NCBI RefSeq assembly: GCF_003334305.1
Contig: NZ_QOWS01000025.1
DNA from: Escherichia coli
Lineage (GTDB): Bacteria > Pseudomonadota > Gammaproteobacteria > Enterobacterales > Enterobacteriaceae
Length of the DNA stretch: 64,000 nucleotides
Direction: 5' to 3' (one strand)
Shown piece after piece: positions 20,531 through 40,101 of this stretch. The stretch's first letter is position 1; each line of letters opens with the position of its first letter. The notes under the pieces are model-generated. The model made no database searches and was not told the DNA's origin. It worked only from the letters and a program-made list of their open reading frames with translations. The translations under genes were made by a program, and so were the position numbers.

Positions 20531-20636
20531 TTTTTTCCCTTAAATTCATCTGAGTTACGCATAGTGATAAACCTCTTTTTCGCAAAAATCGTCATGGATT
20601 TACTAAAACATGCATATTCGATCACAAAACGTCATA

Positions 20637-20648
20637 GTTAACGTTAAC
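20637..20648. promoter_or_regulatory. candidate CscR operator 1 (perfect palindrome GTTAACGTTAAC)
   Basis: 12-bp perfect palindrome in the divergent cscK/cscA intergenic region; repeated identically 64 bp downstream. Confidence 0.5.
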
Positions 20649-20651
20649 ATT

Positions 20652-20667
20652 TGTGATATTCATCGCA
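20652..20667. promoter_or_regulatory. CRP-like site between the two csc operators
   Basis: TGTGAtattcaTCGCA matches TGTGA-N6-TCACA in 9 of 10 positions. Confidence 0.3.
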
Positions 20668-20700
20668 TTTATGAAAGTAAGGGACTTTATTTTTATAAAA

Positions 20701-20712
20701 GTTAACGTTAAC
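20701..20712. promoter_or_regulatory. candidate CscR operator 2 (perfect palindrome GTTAACGTTAAC)
   Basis: Second identical copy about 30 bp upstream of the cscA start; AT-rich flanks. Confidence 0.5.
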
Positions 20713-20746
20713 AATTCACCAAATTTGCTTAACCAGGATGATTAAA

Positions 20747-22180
20747 ATGACGCAATCTCGATTGCATGCGACGCAAAACGCCCTAGCAAAACTTCATGAG
20801 CACCGGGGTAACACTTTCTATCCCCATTTTCACCTCGCGCCTCCTGCCGGGTGGATGAACGATCCAAACGGCCTGATCTGGTTTAACGATCGTTATCACG
20901 CGTTTTATCAACATCACCCGATGAGCGAACACTGGGGGCCAATGCACTGGGGACATGCCACCAGCGACGATATGATCCACTGGCAGCATGAGCCTATTGC
21001 GCTAGCGCCAGGAGACGATAATGACAAAGACGGGTGTTTTTCAGGTAGTGCTGTCGATGACAATGGTGTCCTCTCACTTATCTACACCGGACACGTCTGG
21101 CTCGATGGTGCAGGTAATGACGATGCAATTCGCGAAGTACAATGTCTGGCTACCAGTCGGGATGGTATTCATTTCGAGAAACAGGGTGTGATCCTCACTC
21201 CACCAGAAGGAATCATGCACTTCCGCGATCCTAAAGTGTGGCGTGAAGCCGACACATGGTGGATGGTAGTCGGGGCGAAAGATCCAGGCAACACGGGGCA
21301 GATCCTGCTTTATCGCGGCAGTTCATTGCGTGAATGGACCTTCGATCGCGTACTGGCCCACGCTGATGCGGGTGAAAGCTATATGTGGGAATGTCCGGAC
21401 TTTTTCAGCCTTGGCGATCAGCATTATCTGATGTTTTCCCCGCAGGGAATGAATGCCGAGGGATACAGTTACCGAAATCGCTTTCAAAGTGGCGTAATAC
21501 CCGGAATGTGGTCGCCAGGACGACTTTTTGCACAATCCGGGCATTTTACTGAACTTGATAACGGGCATGACTTTTATGCACCACAAAGCTTTTTAGCGAA
21601 GGATGGTCGGCGTATTGTTATCGGCTGGATGGATATGTGGGAATCGCCAATGCCCTCAAAACGTGAAGGATGGGCAGGCTGCATGACGCTGGCGCGCGAG
21701 CTATCAGAGAGCAATGGCAAACTTCTACAACGCCCGGTTCACGAAGCTGAGTCGTTACGCCAGCAGCATCAATCTGTCTCTCCCCGCACAATCAGCAATA
21801 AATATGTTTTGCAGGAAAACGCGCAAGCAGTTGAGATTCAGTTGCAGTGGGCGCTGAAGAACAGTGATGCCGAACATTACGGATTACAGCTCGGCACTGG
21901 AATGCGGCTGTATATTGATAACCAATCTGAGCGACTTGTTTTGTGGCGGTATTACCCACACGAGAATTTAGACGGCTACCGTAGTATTCCCCTCCCGCAG
22001 CGTGACACGCTCGCCCTAAGGATATTTATCGATACATCATCCGTGGAAGTATTTATTAACGACGGGGAAGCGGTGATGAGTAGTCGAATCTATCCGCAGC
22101 CAGAAGAACGGGAACTGTCGCTTTATGCCTCCCACGGAGTGGCTGTGCTGCAACATGGAGCACTCTGGCTACTGGGTTAA
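20747..22180 (+). CDS. cscA: sucrose-6-phosphate hydrolase / invertase CscA (GH32)
   Basis: GH32 motifs (WMNDPNG, FRDP, WECPD); ORF track starts at 20738, but the Met at 20747 gives the 477-aa form I recall for CscA (either start is possible). Confidence 0.93.
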   Translation: MTQSRLHATQNALAKLHEHRGNTFYPHFHLAPPAGWMNDPNGLIWFNDRYHAFYQHHPMSEHWGPMHWGHATSDDMIHWQHEPIALAPGDDNDKDGCFSGSAVDDNGVLSLIYTGHVWLDGAGNDDAIREVQCLATSRDGIHFEKQGVILTPPEGIMHFRDPKVWREADTWWMVVGAKDPGNTGQILLYRGSSLREWTFDRVLAHADAGESYMWECPDFFSLGDQHYLMFSPQGMNAEGYSYRNRFQSGVIPGMWSPGRLFAQSGHFTELDNGHDFYAPQSFLAKDGRRIVIGWMDMWESPMPSKREGWAGCMTLARELSESNGKLLQRPVHEAESLRQQHQSVSPRTISNKYVLQENAQAVEIQLQWALKNSDAEHYGLQLGTGMRLYIDNQSERLVLWRYYPHENLDGYRSIPLPQRDTLALRIFIDTSSVEVFINDGEAVMSSRIYPQPEERELSLYASHGVAVLQHGALWLLG

Positions 22181-22187
22181 CATAATA

Positions 22188-23183
22188 TCAGGTGGAACAA
22201 CGGATCAACAGCGGGCAAGGGATCCGCGTCACTCTTCCCCCTTCACGACCTTCAATAATATGCAATGCAGCTTCCCGCCCGATAATGTCATGTGGAAGCT
22301 GAATTGTGGTCAGCGGCGGTAAAAACAGATGCCCGACGCCAACCAGATTATCAAAGCCCATTACGGCGACATCCTGCGGGATACGTACCCCCTTCGCCAG
22401 GAGAACCTGATAAGCGACAAAGGCTGCGCGATCGTTACCACATATCAGAACATCAAAATCTGGTTTGCCCGGTTTGAAGTGGGCATTGAGTAAACTTGCG
22501 AGATCGGTGTAGTGATCATCACCTGTTGCCATGTGAAATTGTTTCACCTCAGCCAGATCTCGTCCAGCATCACGCCAGGCCTGCTCAAATCCCTGCCGAC
22601 GATACCCTGTTGCCAACGCACTTTCCGGTAGCCAGAAGCATAACGGTTGACGATAGCCCGCCGCGAGCAAATGCTGTGTTGATTCATATTGTGCAGTGTA
22701 ATCATCAGGGATATAACTGGGTAACGCTGGGTCATCCGCCACACAGTTCGCCAATACAATATTTTCACCATACAGAGACTCAGGCAGCGTGATATGTCGC
22801 AGCCCCATTGTAGTATAGATAATGCCATCCGGACGGTGGGCAAGCAGCTGACGTGCCGCGCGGGCAGCGTCATCTTCAGAAAAAATATTGATTAAAAAAC
22901 TATTCCAGCCGAACTCGCTGGCGGTTTGCTCAATGGCAAGCAGAATATCAACAGAGAAAGGAGTGGTAGCCGTGTCCTGCGCCAGCACGGCGAGAGTCGA
23001 CGGCTTACGTCCTTGAGCGCGCATCTTACGGGCGGAAAGATCAGGAACATAATTCAGGGTCTGGATTGCCTGCAATACGCGGTCACGCGTTGCAGGACGC
23101 ACAGATTCTGCATTATGCATCACCCGGGAGACTGTCATCATCGACACTCCCGCCAGGCGTGCGACATCCTTTAATGAAGCCAT
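22188..23183 (-). CDS. cscR: LacI-family sucrose operon repressor CscR
   Basis: Start moved to internal Met (MASLKDVARLAGVSMMTVSRV, an HTH LacI-type N-terminus), giving 331 aa; the 397-aa track ORF carries a non-coding 5' extension. Confidence 0.9.
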   Translation of the reverse strand: MASLKDVARLAGVSMMTVSRVMHNAESVRPATRDRVLQAIQTLNYVPDLSARKMRAQGRKPSTLAVLAQDTATTPFSVDILLAIEQTASEFGWNSFLINIFSEDDAARAARQLLAHRPDGIIYTTMGLRHITLPESLYGENIVLANCVADDPALPSYIPDDYTAQYESTQHLLAAGYRQPLCFWLPESALATGYRRQGFEQAWRDAGRDLAEVKQFHMATGDDHYTDLASLLNAHFKPGKPDFDVLICGNDRAAFVAYQVLLAKGVRIPQDVAVMGFDNLVGVGHLFLPPLTTIQLPHDIIGREAALHIIEGREGGRVTRIPCPLLIRCST

Positions 23184-23425
23184 ACCCAAGCCGTTTGCCG
23201 TAAAACGGGCACTGTAGCAGAAACAGACGTCACTGGCGAGATCCAACGATATTCTCAACGCCCTATCACCCAACACGGCAATACAATAAAAAATAACAAT
23301 AATTGCCGGATAATTGTACTCAATTCCGCCTCTGTTCTCGCCAACGAGTAACCATATAGGCAAGTAAGTAAAACATGCCAACTGGCATCGCCAACCTGGA
23401 GAAGAAAATATAAATATGGATCATT

Positions 23426-23661: not shown

Positions 23662-24990
23662 ATGGAAAACGCTAAAATGAACTCGCTCATCGCCCAGTAT
23701 CCGTTGGTAAAGGAGCTGGTTGCTCTTAAAGAAACCACCTGGTTTAATCCTGGCACGACCTCATTGGCTGAAGGTTTACCTTATGTTGGCCTGACCGAAC
23801 AGGATGTTCAGGACGCCCATGCGCGCTTATCCCGTTTTGCACCCTATCTGGCAAAAGCATTTCCTGAAACTGCTGCCACTGGGGGGATTATTGAATCAGA
23901 ACTGGTTGCCATTCCAGCTATGCAAAAACGGCTGGAAAAAGAATATCAGCAACCGATCAGCGGGCAACTGTTACTGAAAAAAGATAGCCATTTGCCCATT
24001 TCCGGCTCCATAAAAGCACGCGGCGGGATTTATGAAGTCCTGGCACACGCAGAAAAACTGGCTCTGGAAGCGGGGTTGCTGACGCTTGATGATGACTACA
24101 GCAAACTGCTTTCTCCGGAGTTTAAACAGTTCTTTAGCCAATACAGCATTGCTGTGGGCTCAACCGGAAATCTGGGGTTATCAATCGGCATTATGAGCGC
24201 CCGCATTGGCTTTAAGGTGACAGTTCATATGTCTGCTGATGCCCGGGCATGGAAAAAAGCGAAACTGCGCAGCCATGGCGTTACGGTCGTGGAATATGAG
24301 CAAGATTATGGTGTTGCCGTCGAGGAAGGACGTAAAGCAGCGCAGTCTGACCCGAACTGTTTCTTTATTGATGACGAAAATTCCCGCACGTTGTTCCTTG
24401 GGTATTCCGTCGCTGGCCAGCGTCTTAAAGCGCAATTTGCCCAGCAAGGCCGTATCGTCGATGCTGATAACCCTCTGTTTGTCTATCTGCCGTGTGGTGT
24501 TGGCGGTGGTCCTGGTGGCGTCGCATTCGGGCTTAAACTGGCGTTTGGCGATCATGTTCACTGCTTTTTTGCCGAACCAACGCACTCCCCTTGTATGTTG
24601 TTAGGCGTCCATACAGGATTACACGATCAGATTTCTGTTCAGGATATTGGTATCGACAACCTTACCGCAGCGGATGGCCTTGCAGTTGGTCGCGCATCAG
24701 GCTTTGTCGGGCGGGCAATGGAGCGTCTGCTGGATGGCTTCTATACCCTTAGCGATCAAACCATGTATGACATGCTTGGCTGGCTGGCGCAGGAAGAAGG
24801 TATTCGTCTTGAACCTTCGGCACTGGCGGGTATGGCCGGACCTCAGCGCGTGTGTGCATCAGTAAGTTACCAACAGATGCACGGTTTCAGCGCAGAACAA
24901 CTGCGTAATACCACTCATCTGGTGTGGGCGACGGGAGGTGGAATGGTGCCGGAAGAAGAGATGAATCAATATCTGGCAAAAGGCCGTTAA
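23662..24990 (+). CDS. dsdA: D-serine dehydratase (D-serine ammonia-lyase), PLP-dependent
   Basis: 442-aa ORF ([31 protein letters not shown]) with PLP-lysine region (SGSIKARGG). Confidence 0.96.
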
Positions 24991-26636: not shown

Positions 26637-27799
26637 TAAAGTTGTCCATTATGCGAAATAATGTTGCTAATTTCTTTTTCTATCGGACTGGTATCGATAA
26701 CTAAAGCCTTACTGGTATAAGCCGGCATGGAGGTCACGGTTGAAGCCAGCTCAGGCATCTCGGCAATGTCTTCGTTCTTCGTATCAATAGTTGCTGTCAT
26801 CGATAAACCAATACGCAAGGGATGTTCCATGAGTTCTTTTGGATCAAGAGAAACTTCAACCGGTACACGCTGAACGATTTTGATCCAGTTCCCTGTCGCA
26901 TTTTGTGCAGGTAATAAGGAGAACGCATTGCCGGTTCCCATATTGATCCCTGTCACCCGACCATGAAACACAACATTTTCACCATAAAGATCGCTGATAA
27001 TATTGACCGATTGACCAATCCGTACATCCGTAAGTTGTGTTTCTTTAAAGTTGGCATTAACCCACATTTGACGTGCCGGTACGACAGCCATTAACGATTG
27101 TCCGGGGCTCACTGTTTCGCCGACCTGAACACTTCTCTGGGCAATATAGCCGGTAACCGGACTCTTAATATCCGTACGTTTAAGCGCCAACCAGGCTTCT
27201 TTAGTTGCATCCGCCGCTTCAACGACTTGTGGCTGACGGTTTAATGGTGTGTTCATTATTAAAGCTTTATTCGCTTTATAAGCCTGGATAGCGGCATTCA
27301 ATGCCGCTTTGCTACTTATTAACGTATCTTTGGTATGCTCCAGCGTTTCTTTTGAAATAACCCCCTGCTTCGCTAACGGCACTCGACGGTTATAATCTTC
27401 TAAAGATTGTTGATACTGAATACGTGCTGAAGCGACTTCGGCACTGTATTGTTTATCCTGTAAGTATAGTTTATTCGTTTGCCGAACAATATTTGCCAGA
27501 TTATTTTTAGCTTTATTGAGTGCGATAGTGGCATCAGTTTTATCCAGTGAAACTAAAATGTCACCTTGTCGAACGTAGTTCGTATCTTTATGATTAACGA
27601 CAGTGACACTACCTGAGACTTGTGCAGAAATTGGATCTGCATTCCCCGTGACATAGGCGTCATCTGTACTAATCATGTCTTCTAATTCCATTGACCAATA
27701 GGCATAGGCACCTGAAAACGCAATAAATAAAACTACCGCCAATAAAGAAAAGTATTTTCTTCTGTTAGAATGTTTTTTATTTGAATTAATCTGTTCCAC
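26636..27799 (-). CDS. emrK: multidrug efflux membrane-fusion protein EmrK (EmrA paralogue)
   Basis: 387-aa ORF with N-terminal membrane anchor and coiled-coil/HlyD-like body; GTG start; divergent from evgA. Confidence 0.93.
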   Translation of the reverse strand: MEQINSNKKHSNRRKYFSLLAVVLFIAFSGAYAYWSMELEDMISTDDAYVTGNADPISAQVSGSVTVVNHKDTNYVRQGDILVSLDKTDATIALNKAKNNLANIVRQTNKLYLQDKQYSAEVASARIQYQQSLEDYNRRVPLAKQGVISKETLEHTKDTLISSKAALNAAIQAYKANKALIMNTPLNRQPQVVEAADATKEAWLALKRTDIKSPVTGYIAQRSVQVGETVSPGQSLMAVVPARQMWVNANFKETQLTDVRIGQSVNIISDLYGENVVFHGRVTGINMGTGNAFSLLPAQNATGNWIKIVQRVPVEVSLDPKELMEHPLRIGLSMTATIDTKNEDIAEMPELASTVTSMPAYTSKALVIDTSPIEKEISNIISHNGQL

Positions 27800-27972
27800 T
27801 ATTATCTCTCATTTCTCATAGATGAAATTTATGAATTGAATGAAAAGAGCATTCATTCTTCATATCAAACACAGTGCATGTGTTGCACATTATCCCAGGA
27901 ACGTTGGAGGCCTAATTTAAATGAGGTGCAAAAAAAACAACAGAGGACTAAACCGTGGCTTTTGCAATACAA

Positions 27973-27990
27973 TTCTTACGCCTGTAGGAT
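27973..27990. promoter_or_regulatory. EvgA-box-like inverted repeat in the emrK/evgA divergent region
   Basis: TTCTTACGCCTGTAGGAT against consensus TTCYTACA-NN-TGTARGAA (7/8 and 7/8). Confidence 0.5.
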
Positions 27991-28214
27991 TAGTAAGAAG
28001 ACTTATAGTGCCAACTTGAAACTATAAATCATCGGTACAATCCCTGATTTTATTGTTGACATTTCATTTATGCCGACTATTTATATGGTATACTTGTCGA
28101 ATTATCTTAAAGGAAGCTCAGATTTTCTTATTTTTATTGAGAAAATGAGATGACGCCTTATGTCTGTATTACTACAGGGAGAAGGGAGATGCTTCATTGC
28201 AAAGGGAATAATCT

Positions 28215-28829
28215 ATGAACGCAATAATTATTGATGACCATCCTCTTGCTATCGCAGCAATTCGTAATTTATTGATCAAAAACGATATTGAAATCTTAGC
28301 GGAGTTGACTGAAGGGGGAAGCGCCGTTCAGCGGGTGGAAACACTTAAGCCTGATATCGTCATCATTGATGTCGATATCCCCGGAGTTAACGGTATCCAG
28401 GTGTTAGAAACGCTGAGGAAGCGCCAATATAGCGGAATTATTATTATTGTCTCCGCTAAAAATGACCATTTTTACGGGAAACATTGTGCTGATGCTGGCG
28501 CTAATGGATTCGTGAGTAAAAAAGAAGGCATGAACAATATCATTGCGGCTATTGAAGCTGCAAAAAATGGCTACTGCTATTTCCCCTTCTCTCTCAACCG
28601 GTTTGTTGGAAGTTTAACGTCCGACCAGCAAAAACTCGACTCCTTATCGAAACAAGAAATTAGTGTCATGCGGTATATTCTTGATGGCAAGGATAATAAT
28701 GACATTGCTGAAAAAATGTTCATCAGCAACAAAACTGTCAGCACTTATAAAAGTCGCCTGATGGAAAAATTAGAATGTAAATCACTGATGGATCTTTACA
28801 CATTCGCGCAACGTAACAAAATCGGCTAA
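28215..28829 (+). CDS. evgA: response regulator EvgA (NarL/FixJ family)
   Basis: 204-aa ORF with receiver domain (MNAIIIDDHPLA, DIVIIDVDIPGVNG) and LuxR-type HTH C-terminus. Confidence 0.96.
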   Translation: MNAIIIDDHPLAIAAIRNLLIKNDIEILAELTEGGSAVQRVETLKPDIVIIDVDIPGVNGIQVLETLRKRQYSGIIIIVSAKNDHFYGKHCADAGANGFVSKKEGMNNIIAAIEAAKNGYCYFPFSLNRFVGSLTSDQQKLDSLSKQEISVMRYILDGKDNNDIAEKMFISNKTVSTYKSRLMEKLECKSLMDLYTFAQRNKIG

Positions 28830-28833
28830 TCAC

Positions 28834-31800
28834 ATGAAGTTTTTACCCTATTTTTTTCTTCTCTGTTGTGGTCTTTGGTCGACCATAAGTTTCGCAGACG
28901 AAGATTACATCGAATATCGTGGCATCAGTAGTAACAACCGTGTCACACTTGATCCAGTACGTCTGAGCAACAAGGAATTACGTTGGTTAGCGAGCAAAAA
29001 AAATCTTGTGATTGCAGTACACAAGTCCCAAACGGCTACCTTGTTGCATATCGATTCGCAGCAACAGGTTCGTGGTATTAATGCTGATTATTTAAATCTT
29101 TTAAAAAGAGCGTTAAATATCAAATTAACACTCCGGGAATACGCAGATCATCAAAAAGCAATGGACGCGCTGGAAGAAGGTGAAGTCGATATAGTGTTAT
29201 CACATTTAGTTACTTCGCCGCCTCTTAATAATGACATTGCTGCAACCAAACCATTGATAATTACCTTTCCGGCGCTGGTAACCACCCTTCACGACTCAAT
29301 GCGACCGCTTACCTCACCAAAACCAGTAAATATTGCTCGGGTAGCAAATTACCCCCCAGACGAGGTAATTCATCAATCATTTCCAAAAGCAACAATTATC
29401 TCTTTTACAAATTTATATCAGGCATTAGCATCCGTCTCAGCTGGGCACAATGATTACTTTATTGGTAGTAACATCATTACCAGCAGTATGATTTCCCGCT
29501 ATTTCACTCACTCCTTAAATGTAGTGAAATATTATAACTCGCCGCGTCAATATAATTTTTTCTTGACCAGAAAAGAATCTGTCATTCTTAATGAAGTACT
29601 CAATAGATTTGTTGATGCTTTAACAAATGAAGTTCGCTATGAAGTATCACAAAATTGGCTTGATACAGGAAACCTGGCCTTTCTGAACAAACCATTAGAA
29701 CTCACTGAACATGAAAAACAGTGGATTAAGCAGCATCCCAATTTAAAGGTGCTGGAAAATCCTTACTCGCCCCCCTATTCTATGACGGATGAAAATGGCT
29801 CGGTTCGGGGCGTTATGGGGGACATTCTTAATATTATTACCTTGCAAACAGGTTTAAATTTTTCTCCGATCACCGTTTCACACAATATCCATGCTGGAAC
29901 ACAGCTTAGCCCCGGAGGATGGGATATAATACCTGGCGCTATTTATAGTGAAGATCGAGAAAATAATGTTTTATTTGCTGAAGCCTTCATAACAACGCCT
30001 TACGTTTTTGTCATGCAAAAAGCGCCTGACAGTGAACAAACATTAAAAAAAGGAATGAAAGTTGCCATTCCATATTATTATGAGCTGCATTCGCAATTAA
30101 AAGAGATGTATCCGGAGGTTGAATGGATACAGGTCGATAATGCCAGCGCTGCATTTCACAAGGTTAAGGAAGGTGAACTTGATGCTCTGGTCGCGACACA
30201 GTTAAATTCGCGTTACATGATCGATCATTACTATCCTAATGAACTTTATCATTTTCTTATTCCTGGCGTTCCGAATGCATCGCTTTCGTTCGCTTTTCCT
30301 CGCGGAGAACCGGAACTTAAGGATATTATTAATAAAGCACTGAATGCAATTCCCCCAAGCGAAGTTCTGCGCCTGACGGAAAAATGGATTAAAATGCCCA
30401 ATGTGACCATTGACACATGGGATCTATATAGCGAGCAATTTTATATTGTTACGACATTATCCGTTTTATTAGTTGGCAGTAGCCTTTTATGGGGATTCTA
30501 CCTGTTACGCTCAGTTCGTCGTCGTAAAGTCATTCAGGGTGATTTAGAAAACCAAATATCATTCCGAAAAGCACTCTCGGATTCCTTACCGAATCCAACT
30601 TATGTTGTAAACTGGCAAGGTAATGTCATTAGTCATAATAGTGCTTTTGAACATTATTTCACTGCGGATTACTACAAAAATGCAATGTTACCATTAGAAA
30701 ACAGTGACTCACCCTTTAAAGATGTTTTTTCTAATGCGCATGAAGTCACAGCAGAAACGAAAGAAAATCGAACAATATACACACAGGTATTTGAAATTGA
30801 TAATGGCATCGAGAAAAGATGCATTAATCACTGGCATACATTATGCAATCTTCCTGCAAGTGACAATGCAGTATATATTTGTGGTTGGCAAGATATTACT
30901 GAAACGCGTGATCTAATTAATGCACTCGAGGTAGAAAAAAATAAAGCGATAAAGGCTACCGTAGCAAAAAGTCAGTTTCTGGCAACGATGAGTCACGAAA
31001 TAAGAACACCAATAAGCTCTATTATGGGCTTCCTGGAACTTCTGTCGGGTTCTGGTCTTAGCAAGGAGCAACGGGTGGAGGCGATTTCACTTGCCTACGC
31101 CACCGGACAATCACTCCTCGGCTTAATTGGTGAAATCCTTGATGTCGACAAAATTGAATCGGGTAACTATCAACTTCAACCACAATGGGTCGATATCCCT
31201 ACTTTAGTCCAGAACACTTGTCACTCTTTCGGTGCGATTGCTGCAAGCAAATCCATCGCATTAAGTTGCAGCAGTACATTTCCTGATCATTACCTGGTTA
31301 AGATCGATCCTCAGGCGTTTAAGCAGGTCTTATCAAATTTACTGAGCAATGCTCTCAAATTTACCACCGAGGGGGCAGTAAAAATTACGACCTCCCTGGT
31401 TCACATTGATGACAACCACGCTGTTATCAAAATGACGATTATGGATTCTGGAAGTGGATTATCGCAGGAAGAACAACAACAACTCTTTAAACGCTACAGC
31501 CAAACAAGTGCAGGTCGCCAGCAAACAGGATCTGGCTTAGGCTTAATGATCTGCAAAGAATTAATTAAAAATATGCAGGGCGATTTGTCATTAGAAAGTC
31601 ATCCAGGCATAGGAACAACATTTACGATCACAATCCCGGTAGAAATTAGCCAGCAAGTGGCGACTGTCGAGGCAAAAGCAGAACACCCCATCACACTACC
31701 TGAAAAGTTGAGCATATTAATCGCGGATGATCATCCGACCAACAGGCTATTACTCAAACGCCAGCTAAATCTATTAGGATATGATGTTGATGAAGCCACT

Positions 31801-32427
31801 GATGGTGTGCAAGCGCTACACAAAGTCAGTATGCAACATTATGATCTGCTTATTACTGACGTTAATATGCCGAATATGGATGGTTTTGAGTTGACTCGCA
31901 AACTCCGTGAGCAAAATTCTTCCTTACCCATCTGGGGGCTTACAGCCAACGCACAGGCTAACGAACGTGAAAAAGGGTTAAGTTGCGGCATGAACTTATG
32001 TTTGTTCAAACCGTTGACCCTGGATGTACTGAAAACACATTTAAGTCAGTTACACCAGGTTGCGCATATTGCACCTCAGTATCGCCACCTTGATATCGAA
32101 GCCCTGAAAAATAATACGGCGAACGATCTACAACTGATGCAGGAGATTCTCATGACTTTCCAGCATGAAACGCATAAAGATCTACCCGCTGCGTTTCAAG
32201 CACTAGAAGCTGGCGATAACAGAACTTTCCATCAGTGTATTCATCGCATCCACGGTGCGGCTAACATCCTGAATTTGCAAAAGTTGATTAATATTAGCCA
32301 TCAGTTAGAAATAACACCTGTTTCAGATGACAGTAAGCCTGAAATTCTTCAGTTGCTGAACTCTGTAAAAGAACACATTGCAGAGCTGGACCAGGAGATT
32401 GCTGTTTTCTGTCAGAAAAATGACTAA
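28834..32427 (+). CDS. evgS: hybrid sensor histidine kinase EvgS (periplasmic domains, HisKA/HATPase, receiver, HPt)
   Basis: 1197-aa ORF with signal peptide, H-box (MSHEIRTPISSIMGF), receiver (ILIADDHPTNRLL) and C-terminal HPt region. Confidence 0.96.
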   Translation: MKFLPYFFLLCCGLWSTISFADEDYIEYRGISSNNRVTLDPVRLSNKELRWLASKKNLVIAVHKSQTATLLHIDSQQQVRGINADYLNLLKRALNIKLTLREYADHQKAMDALEEGEVDIVLSHLVTSPPLNNDIAATKPLIITFPALVTTLHDSMRPLTSPKPVNIARVANYPPDEVIHQSFPKATIISFTNLYQALASVSAGHNDYFIGSNIITSSMISRYFTHSLNVVKYYNSPRQYNFFLTRKESVILNEVLNRFVDALTNEVRYEVSQNWLDTGNLAFLNKPLELTEHEKQWIKQHPNLKVLENPYSPPYSMTDENGSVRGVMGDILNIITLQTGLNFSPITVSHNIHAGTQLSPGGWDIIPGAIYSEDRENNVLFAEAFITTPYVFVMQKAPDSEQTLKKGMKVAIPYYYELHSQLKEMYPEVEWIQVDNASAAFHKVKEGELDALVATQLNSRYMIDHYYPNELYHFLIPGVPNASLSFAFPRGEPELKDIINKALNAIPPSEVLRLTEKWIKMPNVTIDTWDLYSEQFYIVTTLSVLLVGSSLLWGFYLLRSVRRRKVIQGDLENQISFRKALSDSLPNPTYVVNWQGNVISHNSAFEHYFTADYYKNAMLPLENSDSPFKDVFSNAHEVTAETKENRTIYTQVFEIDNGIEKRCINHWHTLCNLPASDNAVYICGWQDITETRDLINALEVEKNKAIKATVAKSQFLATMSHEIRTPISSIMGFLELLSGSGLSKEQRVEAISLAYATGQSLLGLIGEILDVDKIESGNYQLQPQWVDIPTLVQNTCHSFGAIAASKSIALSCSSTFPDHYLVKIDPQAFKQVLSNLLSNALKFTTEGAVKITTSLVHIDDNHAVIKMTIMDSGSGLSQEEQQQLFKRYSQTSAGRQQTGSGLGLMICKELIKNMQGDLSLESHPGIGTTFTITIPVEISQQVATVEAKAEHPITLPEKLSILIADDHPTNRLLLKRQLNLLGYDVDEATDGVQALHKVSMQHYDLLITDVNMPNMDGFELTRKLREQNSSLPIWGLTANAQANEREKGLSCGMNLCLFKPLTLDVLKTHLSQLHQVAHIAPQYRHLDIEALKNNTANDLQLMQEILMTFQHETHKDLPAAFQALEAGDNRTFHQCIHRIHGAANILNLQKLINISHQLEITPVSDDSKPEILQLLNSVKEHIAELDQEIAVFCQKND

Positions 32428-32430
32428 ATA

Positions 32431-32465
32431 GCGGCTCCCACAATGTTCAAATGTGGGAGCTATTT
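32431..32465. terminator. hairpin between convergent evgS and yfdE
   Basis: GCTCCCACA-atgttcaaa-TGTGGGAGC; flanking U-tracts are weak. Confidence 0.4.
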
Positions 32466-32482
32466 ACCAGCACATCTTACAT

Positions 32483-33628
32483 TTATGATGAGAACTCCTG
32501 GCGAATTTGTTCCCCATGCTGGTCGAGCGTTGCCGCTCCCGGCATAACATGCGGGTCCGCGCAGCCGCTGATTTTTATCGGATTACCCGGCATCATTATT
32601 CCCCCGGCTTCAATCAACATATTTCTCGCCTGAGTTTGTGGCAATTTAATGGCCTCAGCCACACTTAATAACGGCGCGACGGGTACACCAACTTCATGTA
32701 TTCTGGCTAACCAAACTTCAGCTGCCTGCGTTTTTAACGTCCGCTCAATATATTGTTTAAGAATAGCCTGGTTTTGTACGCGTAAAATATTGCTGCTAAA
32801 TCGGGGATCATTAACCAGTTCCGTAAGCTCCAGTGCCTGGCATAACGCAGAAAAAAGCTTGTCATTACCACAACAAATCGTAATCGGCTTATCCTGAGTA
32901 TTGAAAACATCAAAAGGTGCCATGTAGGGATGGCGATTTCCCAGACGTTGTGGTGACTTCCCTGTCGCGATATATGCCATCAGACCATGCTCCAGAAAAC
33001 TCAGCGTGGCATCAAACATCGCTATATCGACATGCGCCCCTCTCTGGCTCTTTTCGCGGCCATAAAGTGCACTCACTATTCCGCTGAATAAATAGACACC
33101 GCCGCATAGATCCGCAAGAGATGTACCAACGCGCACTGGCGGAGCATCAGGATATCCTGTTTCCATCATTATCCCGCTCATTGCCTGAATGATGGTATCG
33201 TAGGCAGGAGCATCTTTTAGCGGACCGGTATGTCCGAAACCTGACGATGAAGCATATATGAGGCGCGGGTTGATTTCTTGAAGCATTTCCCATGAAAACC
33301 CCAGTTTTTCCATTGTACCTGGGCGAAAATTCTCAGCTAATACATCAGCTTGTTTGAGCATATTTATAAATATACTTTTATCGTGATCATTCTTTAAATC
33401 AAGAACCACACTCTCTTTGCCATGATTAATAAAACTGTAATAGAGTGACTGTCCATCCACATAGGGACCAAATGTGCGGGTATCATCACCATGACCTGGT
33501 GGCTCAACTTTAATTACCCTTGCGCCCATATTACAAAGAAGTTGAGTTCCGAAAGGTCCATTAAGGACATGTGTCATATCGATAACTAATAAGCCTTCAA
33601 ACGGCCCTTTGCTTTCATTATTTGTCAT
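32483..33628 (-). CDS. yfdE: acetyl-CoA:oxalate CoA-transferase YfdE (family III CoA-transferase)
   Basis: Family III CoA-transferase (CaiB/BaiF type); start moved to internal Met (MTNNESKGPFEGLLVID), giving 381 aa. Confidence 0.9.
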   Translation of the reverse strand: MTNNESKGPFEGLLVIDMTHVLNGPFGTQLLCNMGARVIKVEPPGHGDDTRTFGPYVDGQSLYYSFINHGKESVVLDLKNDHDKSIFINMLKQADVLAENFRPGTMEKLGFSWEMLQEINPRLIYASSSGFGHTGPLKDAPAYDTIIQAMSGIMMETGYPDAPPVRVGTSLADLCGGVYLFSGIVSALYGREKSQRGAHVDIAMFDATLSFLEHGLMAYIATGKSPQRLGNRHPYMAPFDVFNTQDKPITICCGNDKLFSALCQALELTELVNDPRFSSNILRVQNQAILKQYIERTLKTQAAEVWLARIHEVGVPVAPLLSVAEAIKLPQTQARNMLIEAGGIMMPGNPIKISGCADPHVMPGAATLDQHGEQIRQEFSS

Positions 33629-33701
33629 TTGCTTATGCCTTGAAAAAAGCCGAAGGTGAAAAGACACTTCGGCATTTATGTAAAATCAATAACATGATTA
33701 A

Positions 33702-34646
33702 TTATGAAACCAGTCGACTGACATAAATCCACAAGGGAGCCGTGACGACAAAACCCAGTACGCTCACAGCCAATGACGCTGTACCAGTGCGGGTGTAGAC
33801 ATTAAACCGGCTGGCAATAATGATTCCGGAGAATGCCGGCGGTAATGCGCCTGCCAGTACCATCATCTGCAAATGTTCGCTGTTCAAATGACATGCCATA
33901 CCAACGAGAAGCAGCGCCAGTGGCATCAGAATCAGCTTCAGGAAGGTGTTATAAGCAATTTCGGCACTGAACTCGAATTTATGTGCAGCCAGAGTCAACC
34001 CCGCAGCGAATACCGCTACCCCTGAGTTAGCCTTCGCAATCAGATTAAAGGTTGGGTCCCATGCTGCCGGAATTTTTACCCCAACCAACACCAGGATCGT
34101 TGCCAGAACAGGTGCCCATACAACTGGCTCCTTTGCCGCAGAAATTAATGCGCTCAGATTACTATTCTTCTTACCATCCGCTCCTGAGGAAGGATTCAGC
34201 AAATACAGACCAATAGGAATAGTAATTGCGTTAACAATAATAGAAATAATTGCTACCACTAAACCTGTTGATACGGAATCACCATAAATAGGATCGAGAA
34301 CTGCAAACCCCAGGAATCCAATGGTAGGTGAACCTGCAATTAATGCACATACAGCTGCTTCTGCATGGGTACGTTTAAAAAATTTGTAGCAACCGAACCA
34401 GGAGAAAAAGAAACATCCGACAATAACCACAAGTGATACAAGGGTCAGACGAGTGTCCGCAAAAATCATTTCCCTGTTTGCCCGAGTAATAGATACAAAT
34501 AGAGCCGCAGGAAGCGCGTAGTTTAATACCAGTTTATTAAATGCCCGAGCTTGATCTTCTGAAAAAGTTTCTCGTCTGCCGCTAAAATAACCCAACAGCA
34601 TGATTACGATAATAGGCAATAAATCGCCAATAAAAAATGTTAGCAT
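33702..34646 (-). CDS. yfdV: auxin-efflux-carrier (AEC) family membrane transporter YfdV
   Basis: 314-aa polytopic membrane ORF located between oxc and yfdE. Confidence 0.9.
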
Positions 34647-34715
34647 AATAGTATTTCCGATAAGGGTCCCCTCACCATCGCATAATGAGTTGGCAAGAGG
34701 AGACGATGTCAGTAT

Positions 34716-36410
34716 TTAATTACCAGCGACTTGTTTTGGGTTAAGTTTGGTAATATGGCCACTTTCAGTTCCTGCTGCAGGGTCGATGACCACATTAATA
34801 ATGGTCGGTTTGCGCGACTGAATACCGGTGGTTAAAGCATGACGAAGTTCATCTGTCGTGGTGACGTTATAGCCAACGCCACGAAACGCATCCATTAATT
34901 TGTCATACCTTGCATGGTGCAACAGATCCGTTGGTGATGGTGCACCAGCGCCACTGAGATCAACACCGTCTCCTCTGTAGATGCCGCCATTATTAAAAAT
35001 AACGATCGTCACCGGCAGGTTATATCGACAAATCGTTTCAATTTCCATCCCACTGAAACCAAAAGCACTATCACCTTCAATGGCGACAACCGGAGAACCA
35101 GAAGTCACGCTAGCACCGATGGCATAGCCCATACCGATGCCCATGACACCCCAGGTACCACAATCCAGACGACGACGTGGTTTATACATATCAATAATAT
35201 TTCGTGCATTATCCAGGGTATTTGCACCTTCATTAACTAAATAAATATCCTGGTTCTCGCGCAATACGTCGCGCACAGCACTTAATGCATTAAAGTAATT
35301 TAATGGTTGAGTATCTGTACTTAATTTTTCATGCATTTTTTGTGCATTTTGCTGCTTGTGGATATTTAAAATATCGCGCCATACCAGTGGAGTCGTAAAT
35401 GTGTTTTGTTTCAGTTCTGCCAGCATACCTTGCATACTGGATGCAATATCACCAACGACTGGCACAGCAATGGGGCGGTTGCTGTCAATTTCCTGCGGTT
35501 CAATATCCAGTTGAATAAACTGTGTATCTGCCGCCCATCCTTTTTTACCGTGTGCCAATAACCAATTCAGTCGTGCACCAACAAGCATGACAACGTCAGC
35601 ATTTGCCAGGGCAAACGAACGCGCAGCTGCCGCAGAAAGTGGATGCGTATCTTCAAGGATCCCTTTCGCCATAGACATTGGCAGGAATGGAATCTGAGTA
35701 CTTTCAATAAATTCACGAAGCTGTTCATCAGCTTGTGAATACGCCGCGCCTTTGCCAAGGATAATTAATGGCCGTTCAGCTTTTGCTAAAAGCGAAATTG
35801 CGCTAGTGACTGACTTCGGGCATGGCAATAATGCTGGCGATGGATTTTCAACTTTAACAATCGTGGTTAACGCTTCGTCTTTTTCCATCGTCGCGGCCAG
35901 GACATTTGCTGGCAAATCAAGATAAACTCCGCCAGGGCGACCCGATACAGAGACCCGGATAGCGCGTGCCAATGCAATGCCAAGATCCTGCGGCTGATTA
36001 ACGCGAAATGCTGCTTTGGCATACGGTTTTGCCGCATTCATTTGGTCCAGCTCTTCATAATCACCTTGCTGTAGGTCGACGATCGCGCGGTCGCTGGAGC
36101 CGCTAATCATGATCATCGGAAAACCATTTACCGTTGCGTTGGCCAATGCGGTCAAACCATTGAGGAATCCTGGCGCAGAAACTGTCAGGCAGATCCCCGG
36201 TTTTTGGGTAAGAAAACCGCTTGCCGCAGCGGCATAGCCTGCCGACTGCTCATGACGAAAACCAATATAACGAATGCCTTCCGCCTGGGCATGGCGTGCC
36301 ATATCCGTCACAGGAATACCTACAACACCATAAATAGTGTCAATATTATTCTGTTTTAATGCTTCAACGATGATATGCATACCATCTGTCATTTGAAGTT
36401 GATCTGACAT
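34716..36410 (-). CDS. oxc: oxalyl-CoA decarboxylase (ThDP-dependent)
   Basis: 564-aa ORF with ThDP-enzyme architecture including the GDSAFGFSGMEIETICRYNLPVTIVIFNNGG motif. Confidence 0.95.
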   Translation of the reverse strand: MSDQLQMTDGMHIIVEALKQNNIDTIYGVVGIPVTDMARHAQAEGIRYIGFRHEQSAGYAAAASGFLTQKPGICLTVSAPGFLNGLTALANATVNGFPMIMISGSSDRAIVDLQQGDYEELDQMNAAKPYAKAAFRVNQPQDLGIALARAIRVSVSGRPGGVYLDLPANVLAATMEKDEALTTIVKVENPSPALLPCPKSVTSAISLLAKAERPLIILGKGAAYSQADEQLREFIESTQIPFLPMSMAKGILEDTHPLSAAAARSFALANADVVMLVGARLNWLLAHGKKGWAADTQFIQLDIEPQEIDSNRPIAVPVVGDIASSMQGMLAELKQNTFTTPLVWRDILNIHKQQNAQKMHEKLSTDTQPLNYFNALSAVRDVLRENQDIYLVNEGANTLDNARNIIDMYKPRRRLDCGTWGVMGIGMGYAIGASVTSGSPVVAIEGDSAFGFSGMEIETICRYNLPVTIVIFNNGGIYRGDGVDLSGAGAPSPTDLLHHARYDKLMDAFRGVGYNVTTTDELRHALTTGIQSRKPTIINVVIDPAAGTESGHITKLNPKQVAGN

Positions 36411-36463
36411 GATTAATAACCTCGAAATTTTTATAAATTGGGAGCCAGAAGCCCCCGTTAATA

Positions 36464-37714
36464 TCAGATGGCGTGGTTTTGCTTCATTGCAGCAATTTCA
36501 TCGTCGCTATAACCCAGCTCCTGCAATACAGCAGCGGTATGTTCACCTAATAGCGGCGCAGCTTTAATATCCGGCGTAAAGGCAGAGAATTTCATTGGAC
36601 AACCAACGGTCAGATATTTTCCACGCAACGGTTGTTCCACTTCAACAACACTGCCACTTTGGCGCAAAGAGGGATCAAGTGAAATTTCTTTCATACTTAA
36701 AACCGGTGCACAAGGAATATCAAACTGAGTCAAATAGGCCACCGCTTCATGTTTATCAATAGTGACAGTGTATTTTTCGATTTCAGCAAAAATATCGAAA
36801 ATATGTGGCTGTCGTGCATGGGCTGTACTGTATGCCGGATCGGTAATCCATTCTGGTTTGCCGATGGCTTTACAGGTGTTTTCCCAGTTTTGCTCCTGAA
36901 TAGTGAAATAAATATAGGCGTTAGGATCGGTTTCCCAGCCTTTACATTTCAGGATCCAGCCAGGCTGACCGCCACCACCTGCATTACCACCGCGGGGAAC
37001 TGCATCACCAAATGTACCATTCGGATACTGCGGGTATTCTTCCAGATAACCCAATTTATCGAGACGCTGCTGGTCACGTAATTTCACGCGGCAAAGGTTC
37101 AATACGGCATCCTGCATTGACATGGTGACTCGTTGCCCACGCCCCGTTTTTTCGCGATGCAGCAAAGCAGCAAGTAAACCGATCAGCAAATGCATTCCGG
37201 TGTTGCTGTCACCCAACGCTGCAGCGCTTACCAGCGGCGGACCATCCCAAAAACCCGTAGTGGATGCCGCGCCACCCGCTGCCTGAGCAACGTTTTCATA
37301 GGCTTTTACATTCACATAAGGCGAACACTCATCAAACCCTTTGATCGAACCAAAAATCAGACGTGGATTGATTTCTTGAATATGCTCCCAGGTGAAGCCC
37401 ATGTGATCAATGGCCCCTGGATGAAAGTTCTCGACTAAGATATCAGCTTCGCGGATCAGCTTTTCCATTACCTCTTTGCCTTCCGCTGTTTTGGTATTTA
37501 ACTCAATAGAACGTTTGTTACTGTTAAGCATGGTGAAGTAAAGCGCATCGATATCAGGAATATCTCGCAGCTGGTGACGCGTTACGTCACCAACGCCGGG
37601 ACGTTCAATTTTAATAACGTCAGCGCCAAACCAGGCCAGCATTTGAGTACAAGATGGGCCAGATTGCACACCGGTGAAATCGAGAACTTTAATTCCTTGA
37701 AGTGGAGTTGACAT
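36464..37714 (-). CDS. frc: formyl-CoA:oxalate CoA-transferase Frc (YfdW)
   Basis: 416-aa family III CoA-transferase ([43 protein letters not shown]). Confidence 0.95.
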
Positions 37715-37965
37715 AGCAATACCTATTAGTTAATTAAATATGTGTTAATTTAGCGTTTATTTAAGGCGTAATATCTTCTATAAATAACCCGCAAAATATC
37801 GTCGTAGCTGCACTCGATATTTTTAAAATCCTGTATCAAGTGCTGAAAATCATTTCATCGCCACTTCCAATTCCTTTCTGCATGGTAAGTAGTGAGGACG
37901 AAAAGAAGAATATGATAAATATTGATTCGTGGTAATCAGAGAGAGTCGCGACATTTGTGATGTTA

Positions 37966-37983
37966 TTCTTACAACTGTAAGAA
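37966..37983. promoter_or_regulatory. perfect EvgA consensus box upstream of frc
   Basis: TTCTTACAACTGTAAGAA matches both half-sites exactly; about 250 bp upstream of frc start; coordinates cross-checked against an overlapping ORF-track frame. Confidence 0.55.
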
Positions 37984-38226
37984 GCGCCGGTGATTTACAA
38001 GTAAGGGTATGATTACGCTTTTTAAAGCGTACCATAAAACATAACATAATAAATGATTTGTGATGACACGGGATTATTGGGATTTACTTTGAGGAAGATA
38101 AAATGCGTGTTTATAGAACCGCGAGCGCCAAATAATTTTATGACCACAACCTGTCGTATTGTGGTCATAAAAAATTGTCGGCTGGAGGGAGTTAAATCCT
38201 TTACCTCAATATACTGCCTGTCAGCA

Positions 38227-38859
38227 TTAGTTCACAAACAGTGCTTCGCTGTCGACGATGATTCCATCTTCCGCACCTTTAAGCGCCAGGTTTGCCTCGT
38301 AGTATTGCTTTTTATCAAGCAGTTTCTGCGCATCAGCAAGTGCATTACGAGTCTGTTTAAGCGGCATCAGATATTGGTTTTCCATTACGCCAACACCGGC
38401 CAGGCGAAGTTCTTCCATTGCGCCCTTTTTATCCCCTTTCGCCATTTTTTCATTGGCAATTTTTATCGCGGCTTCTTTTTCGGGAGTTGCTACATAGCTC
38501 TCAGAAATTCCGACAGATGCATTAATGACAATATATTGGTCATCATTGAGATTGGTCTTTTTACCTGGCTTAGCGAACTTTGCCCATTCGGTACTGTCAT
38601 CTGACAGCAAAGCGGAAGCTTCATTGGTCAGTTCTTTTGCCTTTTCTGGATCGCCATGAAACAGAGCCAGGCGCGCTACCTGCACGTCACGCATCGCATA
38701 TAAACCTTGTTCAGAGATACGCTCTGCTGCTGCCGTTTTCTGGGTTTGCTGAACTTGCTGAGTTTGCTGTTGTGCCGCTACCGGTGCATTATCAGCAGCC
38801 CATACAGTTGAAGATGCCAGAATTGCTGTGACCATCGTGGCCATAATTAAACGTTTCAT
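38227..38859 (-). CDS. yfdX: periplasmic protein YfdX (EvgA-induced)
   Basis: 210-aa ORF with signal peptide, Q-rich linker and YfdX-family body; EvgA boxes upstream. Confidence 0.9.
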
Positions 38860-38956
38860 ACTTACCTCATTCTTTAACAGTTTTAGAAAACGCCGCCATC
38901 ATATTGGGTGAGCATGAAATGAGAAATCAGAGAGCAACGGTCATTTTGAAAGGGTT

Positions 38957-39012
38957 ATCTTACAGTTGTAGTTATTATCGCAAGAAGTATTTTAGTCTTA
39001 CAATTGTAGGAA
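38957..39012. promoter_or_regulatory. two EvgA-box-like sites upstream of yfdX
   Basis: ATCTTACAGTTGTAGTTA (weaker) and GTCTTACAATTGTAGGAA (15/16 half-site match), 100-150 bp upstream of yfdX start. Confidence 0.5.
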
Positions 39013-39154
39013 TATGCTTCCTGTCACAGAGAACTATTCTTATGTACCACAAAGAGATGTCATTTATTATATCGATGTAAATATTGATTAATTATATGTA
39101 AATACAGCCATAACATCGTAGGTCCTCAGTGAACCATTTTCAGGATAACTTTCT

Positions 39155-39430
39155 ATGAAAGTAAACTTAATACTTTTTAGCTTATTTTTATTGGTCTCTA
39201 TTATGGCATGCAATGTTTTTGCATTTTCCATTTCTGGTGGTGGAAGTGAGAGGAGCTATAAAGAGACGGAAAAAACATCAGCGATGACGATAACTCACTC
39301 TACAAAACTTCAGCCATCACAGGCAATTTTGTTTAAGATGAGAGAAGATGCGCCACCATTAAACCTCACAGAAGAAACCACGCCCCCTTTTCCGACAAAG
39401 GCGAATTATCTTATTCATCCTGTGCGATAG
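39155..39430 (+). CDS. ypdI: small lipoprotein YpdI
   Basis: 91-aa ORF with signal peptide and lipobox-like MAC motif (VSIMACNVF); K-12 syntenic position. Confidence 0.8.
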   Translation: MKVNLILFSLFLLVSIMACNVFAFSISGGGSERSYKETEKTSAMTITHSTKLQPSQAILFKMREDAPPLNLTEETTPPFPTKANYLIHPVR

Positions 39431-39506
39431 CGTCTGTCACCTGGCAGGTGAACAATCATGTCTGATGCTGATGTGAACACCTGCCCAAATGAGCCATCCT
39501 GACCCA

Positions 39507-39749
39507 CTACCGCCTGCCATACCCCACCATAAAGCGAATCATCAAGCCACAAGCCGGGGCAAGAAACATAAATATCCCCGTCACCAGTTCATTACCGCCT
39601 GTTAACCACATGGTGAAGTAATAAATGAGTGCAGCGAGGATCACCATGCCGAAGAAAGAAGAGACCGCCGATACCACGTTCAGTACCTGACCGATGTATC
39701 CGCTTACGCAGACAATACACAGGGCGAGAAACATCCATAAATAAATCAT
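39507..39749 (-). CDS. yfdY: small inner-membrane protein YfdY
   Basis: 80-aa ORF with two to three hydrophobic helices; K-12 syntenic position. Confidence 0.8.
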   Translation of the reverse strand: MIYLWMFLALCIVCVSGYIGQVLNVVSAVSSFFGMVILAALIYYFTMWLTGGNELVTGIFMFLAPACGLMIRFMVGYGRR

Positions 39750-40101
39750 AGCTCAACCTCCTGCCGCGCTAAAAAACCTGTAACTTCAGTCACTTTAATA
39801 GTAAGACAATCCTTAACCTCTGGCAATTTTTGCTAAGCATCAATGAAAACAGCATGTTAAATGCAACGCTATTGCGTGCGGAAAATTTTTTACTTTGCAC
39901 GATTAATAATCAGTAGCTGAAAGCAGTCAGCCAGTGATAAAGTAGAGCCACCGCATTCATGCTCCTCGTGGTTATGTCCTGACTAGTCTTTACACTCTTT
40001 ACAGGAACCATTGTCGTACATGATGGCCCAACCAATTGAGTGTACCGCTGTCGACATGGAATCTTCTGCGATACAACAATTCGTATCTACAGAAGGTAAC
40101 T

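Follow-up and report, generated by a model that had tools for sequence, protein, structure and literature searches.

How do bacteria that degrade oxalate without the antiporter OxlT take up their substrate? By published counts such bacteria make up the large majority of the gut species carrying frc and oxc (125 species without OxlT compared with 16 that also have oxlT; PMC12551280). The question is also raised by an Escherichia coli locus lying in a stretch of 64,000 nucleotides (RefSeq assembly GCF_003334305.1, contig NZ_QOWS01000025.1), which we call the window. The interval 32483–37714 of the window is filled exactly by four consecutive minus-strand open reading frames (ORFs), which are transcribed in the order frc, oxc, yfdV and yfdE, and the RefSeq annotation contains the same four genes in this interval. 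In our comparison of many bacterial genomes the membrane carrier gene yfdV is mostly found next to the gene of one or the other of two unrelated oxalate-converting enzymes. Judged from this gene neighbourhood and from the fold of the protein, it is fairly probable that YfdV imports oxalate, either by uniport or in exchange for formate.

All four genes of the operon score above the curated cut-offs of their family models, and Frc, Oxc and YfdE are encoded by uninterrupted ORFs. The gene frc (yfdW; 36464..37714, minus strand) codes for a formyl-CoA:oxalate CoA-transferase of 416 amino acids (equivalog TIGR03253, 785 bits against a cut-off of 504) and is the first gene of the transcription unit, with which the RefSeq annotation concurs. 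Located 53 bp 3′ of frc is oxc (yfdU; 34716..36410, minus strand), the gene of a thiamine-diphosphate-dependent oxalyl-CoA decarboxylase of 564 amino acids (equivalog TIGR03254, 1047 bits against 739), which carries out the proton-consuming step. Then follow yfdV (33702..34646, minus strand), encoding an AEC/PIN-fold membrane carrier of 314 amino acids (NF007384, 714 bits against 404), and yfdE (32483..33628, minus strand), encoding an acetyl-CoA:oxalate CoA-transferase of 381 amino acids (NF008511, CoA:oxalate CoA-transferase, 883 bits against 522). The activity of YfdE, which primes the cycle from acetyl-CoA, has been demonstrated (PMC3720670). The mechanically called ORF of yfdE begins at the GTG at 33667 (32483–33667). 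Since positions 1–381 of NF008511 align to the ORF residues 14–394, translation actually begins with the ATG at 33628, which RefSeq likewise gives. An earlier note on this DNA, made from the sequence alone, had thus named the four gene products correctly. The locus is a well-annotated E. coli core operon for acid-induced oxalate breakdown and as such already known, and the gap left by the missing antiporter has been in print since 2013–2014. The neighbourhood evidence added here turns an orphan transporter into a specific and cheaply testable hypothesis reaching beyond E. coli.

The earlier note had further stated that the cluster is without an OxlT-type antiporter of the major facilitator superfamily (MFS). 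As a probe for such genes we used E. coli YhjX, an OFA-family MFS protein related to OxlT (E=1.5e-31 against the structure 8hpj). A tblastn search with YhjX gave no match at E<=0.01 within the 64-kb window, in agreement with the statement. YhjX, which is the single OFA-family MFS protein of E. coli and is encoded at another locus, passes the model of the OFA subfamily (TIGR00890, 478 bits against a cut-off of 375), fails the OxlT equivalog TIGR04259 (159 bits against 335) and exceeds the threshold set for SfMCT, the model of L-lactate transporters (342 bits against 320). We therefore rejected YhjX as a true OxlT orthologue, as it falls below the OxlT cut-off and is nearer to the lactate transporters. 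A passage in PMC3720670 citing Fontenot 2013 names YhjX as a proposed inducible oxalate:formate antiporter; more recently it was proposed to be a pyruvate transporter, and its induction was found to be specifically by pH (PMC10746267). The claim that YfdV is the only candidate for the transport of substrate or product consequently holds within the operon and is too broad for the whole cell, where YhjX is a proposed antiporter and channels of the formate/nitrite transporter (FNT) family are candidates for formate. The FNT channels FocA and FocB could let formate out. A divergent member of the same family, yfdC (16773–17705, plus strand; TIGR00790, 53 bits against a cut-off of 232), is encoded in the window about 15 kb from the oxalate operon; it is conceivable as a formate exit route and is listed as uncharacterised in PMC10971958.

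To place YfdV in a wider context we compared its loci using one genome per species (GTDB). The alignment of YfdV-clade proteins yielded 80 loci with 47–99% identity, and the neighbouring genes were assigned by tblastn with the E. coli proteins. Represented are Enterobacterales, Orbaceae, Ignatzschineria, Xanthobacteraceae, Ancylobacter, Sutterellaceae, an Oxalobacter metagenome-assembled genome (MAG), many Bacteroidales, Flavobacteriales, Sphingobacterium, Bifidobacterium, Eggerthellaceae and Cetobacterium, with at least four phyla in all. The gene oxc is located immediately upstream of yfdV on the same strand in 66 of the 80 loci (median gap 88 bp), and frc is also present in 56 of these 66. 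At ten other loci, and additionally at the metagenomic locus L008, the gene immediately upstream of the yfdV homologue codes for an OxdC-family bicupin of 376–378 amino acids, and neither frc nor oxc is present. Altogether oxc or oxdC directly precedes the carrier gene in 76 of the 80 loci. Four of the bicupins were scanned against TIGR03404 (bicupin, oxalate decarboxylase family) and reached 505–537 bits with a cut-off of 254, and the remaining ones were assigned by their tblastn identity of 53–60% to the L008 bicupin. None of the yfdV-linked bicupins has a signal peptide; they are therefore cytoplasmic, and for the same reason we rejected the possibility that they are secreted enzymes which make an import of oxalate needless.

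The two types of neighbouring enzymes are unrelated. Frc and Oxc depend on CoA and thiamine, whereas OxdC is a manganese bicupin, and the two systems share only oxalate as substrate and formate and CO2 as products. In addition, frc has been rearranged around the oxc–yfdV pair, being on the opposite strand in Bifidobacterium and Eggerthellaceae and duplicated in Providencia. Because yfdV has been kept beside either of two unrelated enzymes across at least four phyla despite this rearrangement of frc, YfdV almost certainly moves oxalate, formate or both. A neighbour-joining tree places the OxdC-linked carriers at nested positions among those linked to Oxc, and the most divergent member, that of L008 (43% identity), is OxdC-linked as well.

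The association with oxalate genes is confined to the YfdV clade. A relative with 44–50% identity still adjoins a true Frc (666 bits), and below about 40% identity the link vanishes: a 38% relative adjoins a thiamine-pyrophosphate-dependent enzyme other than Oxc, and a 34% relative is without such a neighbour. These distant family members were sampled by seven contig look-ups outside the 80-locus scan, two of which (P0127 and P0146) were too short or uninformative. Next to a benzoylformate decarboxylase (623 bits) there is an auxin efflux carrier (AEC) family relative of YfdV with about 35% identity (L011:1887–4443), and a further distant AEC relative lies beside a gene resembling acetolactate synthase that is interrupted by a DDE transposase (L009:4112–7915); the relatives at these two loci are 35–39% identical to YfdV. 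Both neighbours are thiamine-dependent enzymes, and there may be a broader tendency of AEC carriers to be paired with carboxylate-converting enzymes. With the narrow model NF007384 (cut-off 404) the carriers of Bacteroides (431 bits) and Ancylobacter (423 bits) pass, and those of Bifidobacterium (367 bits) and Turicimonas (358 bits) are just under the cut-off.

In a 2025 survey, 75 gut genomes of Bacteroidota and 8 of Actinomycetota carried frc and oxc but lacked oxlT (PMC12551280). The phyla with frc and oxc but no oxlT in that survey are those in which we find yfdV next to oxc. The arrangements given there are "oxc -> N -> frc" and "frc -> oxc -> N -> frc" with N left unnamed, and in the loci surveyed here N is a YfdV homologue. 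A phmmer search of the ORFs within +/-10 kb of 85 loci detected no OFA/OxlT-like gene at E<=1e-3, and in none of these loci is a second transporter conserved.

Several single loci deserve mention. Klebsiella sp. BIGb0407 carries both module types in one genome (L014 and L021), and its carriers are 85% identical to E. coli YfdV in the frc–oxc–yfdV–yfdE operon and 65% identical in the oxdC–yfdV pair. In Providencia and Moellerella (L015, L017, L018 and L020, around 11000–12300) a second frc-like gene, 71–80% identical to E. coli Frc, lies 3′ of yfdV; it replaces yfdE in three of these loci and precedes a retained yfdE in P. rustigianii (L015). The Yersinia vastinensis locus (L013) contains yfdX–frc–oxc–yfdV–yfdE and evgA with 84–96% amino acid identity to E. 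coli, far over other Enterobacterales, which suggests a recent horizontal transfer of the whole evgAS–yfd island or a mislabelled assembly. In Parasutterella, Turicimonas and Sutterella (L067, L068 and L075) the YfdV homologues, with 54–55% identity, are surrounded by housekeeping genes, and oxalate genes are absent from the 10 kb around them.

Which of the two compounds would need the carrier can be judged from their chemistry. With pKa values of 1.25 and about 4.3, oxalate bears a charge over the whole relevant pH range, and its entry requires a carrier. Formate can exit carrier-free as formic acid (pKa 3.75) or via FNT channels. Because oxalate is always charged and formate has other exits, the import of oxalate is the step that would need YfdV.

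YfdV matches the Pfam family Mem_trans (PF03547) at E=2.1e-79 with residues 5–307 covering the model positions 2–343 of 343, that is, over the full length. On TIGR00946 (auxin efflux carrier subfamily) it reaches 116 bits and stays under the cut-off of 246, whereas the narrower NF007384 (transporter YfdV) is passed. An AlphaFold2 model of YfdV (pLDDT 81, pTM 0.79) has ten helices, two of which are broken, at S106-P107-T108 (break 106–108) and at L268-P269-P270 (break 267–271). A Foldseek search with this model retrieved PIN8 (9g0w/7qp9, TM-score 0.73–0.74, E about 1e-10) and the transporter domain of LYCHOS (TM-score 0.78). According to the model YfdV has the PIN/AEC crossover fold with ten helices. 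PIN8 is also the best sequence match among the solved structures (E=9e-10, about 21% identity), and no bacterial AEC protein is among the sequence or fold matches of YfdV to solved structures. T108 of YfdV aligns with N117 of PIN8, which we take to be the crossover asparagine contacting the substrate. T108, P270 and S273 are invariant within the YfdV clade and variable in remoter AEC proteins.

The earlier note had called the substrate of YfdV unproven, and the literature is of the same opinion. YfdV was an "unassigned membrane transport protein" in 2013 (PMC3720670), it is listed as "Uncharacterized" (TCDB 2.A.69.3.5) in a 2024 study (PMC10971958), and a 2024 phylogeny calls it "poorly characterised". 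No publication connecting oxalate to AEC proteins or auxin efflux carriers turned up in the literature searched, and a search for an oxalate permease or transporter of Bifidobacterium led only to reviews mentioning OxlT.

YfdV could alternatively be a strict oxalate:formate exchanger, that is, an analogue of OxlT on a different fold which releases one formate per oxalate taken up. YfdV is the sole transporter gene in the oxdC–yfdV and frc–oxc–yfdV modules, and a single protein for substrate and product would be economical. Moreover yfdV occupies the place of oxlT in oxalotroph loci, and there are phyla having yfdV without oxlT (PMC12551280). However, the AEC/PIN members of known activity, including the PINs and MleP of Oenococcus oeni, are electrogenic organic-anion uniporters. 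To our knowledge there is no obligate exchanger in the AEC/PIN family, and at acid pH formate leaves as formic acid without any carrier. We regard strict exchange as unlikely, though it is the strongest of the competing explanations.

Less probable still is that YfdV exports only formate or formic acid and that oxalate enters via YhjX, via a dicarboxylate carrier or, at very low pH, by diffusion of oxalic acid. The neighbourhood evidence fits this explanation equally well, as both types of neighbouring enzymes also yield formate; the PIN proteins are exporters, and with YhjX a pH-induced OFA-family MFS protein proposed to be an oxalate:formate antiporter is at hand. Formate, however, is the compound which least needs a dedicated exporter, whereas oxalate, being always charged, requires a carrier. 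Furthermore the absence of a conserved second transporter at the 85 loci and the profile scores of YhjX, under the OxlT cut-off and over that of the L-lactate model, speak against it, and we judge it improbable. Finally, we consider it very improbable that YfdV transports something foreign to the pathway, for instance a different small carboxylate (malonate, glyoxylate or malate), and owes its position in E. coli to a historical accident. Some sources do label homologues "malonate transporter", AEC substrates are diverse and the yfdV phenotype in the oxalate response was reported to be secondary (PMC3720670). But the adjacency kept in at least four phyla despite the rearrangement of frc, and with OxdC as well, would hardly be expected unless carrier and enzymes had a substrate or product in common.

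A number of points weigh against oxalate import by YfdV and have to be considered. Mullins et al. found only a secondary role of yfdV in the oxalate-induced acid tolerance response (PMC3720670), and another entry route must exist or uptake must not be limiting at 25–50 mM oxalate and low pH. Gene neighbourhood cannot distinguish the import of oxalate from the export of formate or from an exchange of both. We found no transport assay on YfdV or its close homologues in the literature searched. In the protein there is no conserved positive charge that would mark a site for a dianion, save K38 and R58, both of which distant AEC proteins have as well. At four of the 80 loci (three Sutterellaceae and one Bacteroides) oxalate genes are missing from the neighbourhood; the 80 loci, with many Bacteroidales MAGs among them, are phylogenetically non-independent, and the neighbour-joining tree is one without support values.

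The regulation and the enzyme steps of the operon are documented by the sequence or by publications. At low pH EvgS/EvgA activates a promoter downstream of the EvgA box at 37966–37983. YfdE makes the first oxalyl-CoA out of acetyl-CoA, Oxc converts oxalyl-CoA to formyl-CoA and CO2 with the consumption of one cytoplasmic proton, and Frc hands the CoA to the next oxalate and releases formate. If YfdV imports oxalate, it would supply the oxalate in place of the MFS antiporter OxlT of Oxalobacter, taking up the anion, at pH 2.5–4 mainly hydrogen-oxalate. By analogy with the characterised members of the family, this uptake would most likely be an electrogenic uniport. The formate would then exit either by diffusing out as formic acid or by way of FNT channels. 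Per turnover one proton would come in with the substrate, one would be consumed by the decarboxylation and one would leave with formic acid. The predicted net result, one cytoplasmic proton lost and one negative charge moved inward, would be identical for uniport and strict exchange.

The regulatory region fits an acid-induced module. A perfect match to the 18-bp inverted-repeat consensus of EvgA, TTCTTACAACTGTAAGAA, is located at 37966..37983, about 250 bp upstream of the ATG of frc. With up to three mismatches allowed, the consensus has four matches in the window compared with 0.73 expected, and only this one is perfect. Two of the others lie upstream of yfdX (38995–39012 with one mismatch and 38957–38974 with three mismatches), and one is in the emrK/evgA intergenic region (27973–27990). 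EvgA is reported to bind inverted repeats upstream of yfdX and of yfdWUVE (PMC3720670). The gene yfdX (38227..38859, minus strand; NF007645, 375 bits), which codes for a periplasmic protein, is situated upstream of frc and is followed by a terminator-like hairpin of 15 pairs (38136–38172, from a terminator scan). Because of this hairpin yfdX and frc–oxc–yfdV–yfdE are separate EvgA-dependent units, which matches the description by Mullins et al. (PMC3720670). The intergenic gaps inside frc–oxc–yfdV–yfdE are 53, 69 and 73 bp, and no terminator is seen from frc onward until a hairpin after yfdE. The latter (32434..32460) has a GC-rich stem of 9 bp (GCTCCCACA / TGTGGGAGC) and a loop of 9 nt and lies in the 55-bp gap between the convergent genes evgS and yfdE; it was read straight from the sequence, the consensus terminator scan not having listed it, and is a probable bidirectional terminator. 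A riboswitch or leader element in the long 5′ region of frc was rejected, as an Rfam scan of 27000–40500 at E<=0.1 found no RNA element.

Under acid stress yfdX, frc, yfdV and oxc are up by log2 4.3–4.9 at the level of both mRNA and ribosome footprints (PMC10746267); for frc, oxc and yfdV the values are 4.3–4.8, corresponding to an induction of about 20-fold. Constitutive evgS mutants have frc and oxc near the top of their induced genes, and yfdV is co-induced there too (PMC4283999). The link to EvgA made in the earlier note is thus confirmed by the perfect box upstream of frc and by the published acid induction. The carrier gene yfdV is on the same strand as the gene of a proton-consuming cytoplasmic decarboxylase and is co-induced with it, as in a decarboxylase-plus-carrier module.

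The operon is flanked on one side by emrKY, evgA and evgS and on the other side by yfdX, ypdI, yfdY, lpxP, alaC and ypdABC. evgA (28215–28829, plus strand; NF007419, 438 bits) and evgS (28834–32427, plus strand; NF007420, 2878 bits) encode the acid-sensing two-component system that activates the operon, evgS being convergent with yfdE. The two-component system ypdA–ypdB (43129–45575, plus strand) is found about 5.4 kb beyond the start of frc. We take YpdAB to control yhjX; its proximity to the oxalate operon may be coincidental. Several E. coli chromosomes match the region 32000–39500 with 100% identity, and this region is found in 5425 of 5426 complete genomes; 21 of its 5495 matches lie on E. 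coli plasmid records. Over its entire length the window is collinear with, and about 99% identical to, NZ_CP030939.1. At 18297–23381 it contains a sucrose-utilisation (csc) cluster beside a truncated dsdX, with dsdA adjacent at 23662–24990. According to the annotation of the collinear strain this cluster consists of an MFS sugar transporter, a kinase, a sucrose-6-phosphate hydrolase and a LacI-type regulator. E. coli K-12 is presumably without the csc cluster.

Taking all loci together, we find it rather probable that the proteins of the YfdV clade form, besides OxlT and without relationship to it, another widespread group of bacterial oxalate carriers. This group would provide the missing uptake step for most OxlT-less degraders (including gut Bacteroidota, Bifidobacterium, Eggerthellaceae and Enterobacterales) and would have been recruited independently by Frc/Oxc and by OxdC. 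If this is true, the minimal oxdC–yfdV pairs would be two-gene modules of oxalate-dependent acid resistance, and in E. coli the mechanism of one EvgA-dependent acid-resistance system would be completed. Carriers of the YfdV type would be a better marker than frc and oxc alone for the real oxalate-degrading capacity of microbiomes, which is relevant to hyperoxaluria and kidney stones, and they would be a compact part for engineered oxalate-degrading probiotics. Among bacterial PIN-fold carriers they would also be the first for which a small-anion substrate is defined, and as such useful for work on the PIN mechanism.

How does the proposed system compare with known ones? OxlT of Oxalobacter formigenes (MFS, OFA family; 8hpj/8hpk) serves the same Frc/Oxc pathway, and the role proposed for YfdV, to bring oxalate to a cytoplasmic decarboxylation, is alike; in oxalotrophs oxlT is usually near frc and oxc (PMC12551280). 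Unlike the predicted ten-helix PIN/AEC crossover fold of YfdV, OxlT is a rocker-switch antiporter with 12 transmembrane helices, and its transport is proven whereas that of YfdV is inferred. The plant auxin exporter PIN8 (7qp9, 9g0w), the best structural match, has the two crossover helices and a carboxylate anion as substrate in common with YfdV but exports a bulky aromatic acid and has a sequence identity of only about 21%. MdcF, the putative malonate carrier of the Klebsiella malonate decarboxylase operon, belongs to the same proteobacterial AEC clade as YfdV according to the 2024 phylogeny; it is likewise a small-dicarboxylate carrier encoded with a decarboxylase, but its substrate is malonate and it is itself poorly characterised.

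Within E. coli the GadB/GadC and AdiA/AdiC systems also pair an acid-induced cytoplasmic decarboxylase that consumes a proton with a carrier for its substrate, and they have the EvgA/GadE regulatory network in common with the yfd operon. They differ in using amino-acid antiporters of the APC family, with proven exchange, and pyridoxal-phosphate enzymes, whereas the yfd module is CoA-dependent and the role of its carrier is inferred. In the mle locus of Streptococcus mutans, mleS (malolactic enzyme), mleP (malate permease) and oxdC are co-transcribed and acid-induced (PMC2834670); here, too, the gene of an oxalate decarboxylase adjoins that of a small-dicarboxylate permease. MleP of O. oeni, the malate permease working with the malolactic enzyme, transports malate and belongs to a different AEC subclade than YfdV, one whose nearest relatives are described to be the PILS proteins. 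Like YfdV, however, it is a member of the AEC family and its gene is co-located with that of a proton-consuming decarboxylase; it catalyses an electrogenic uniport of the malate monoanion with a separate exit of the product, and the system is acid-protective and generates a proton-motive force.

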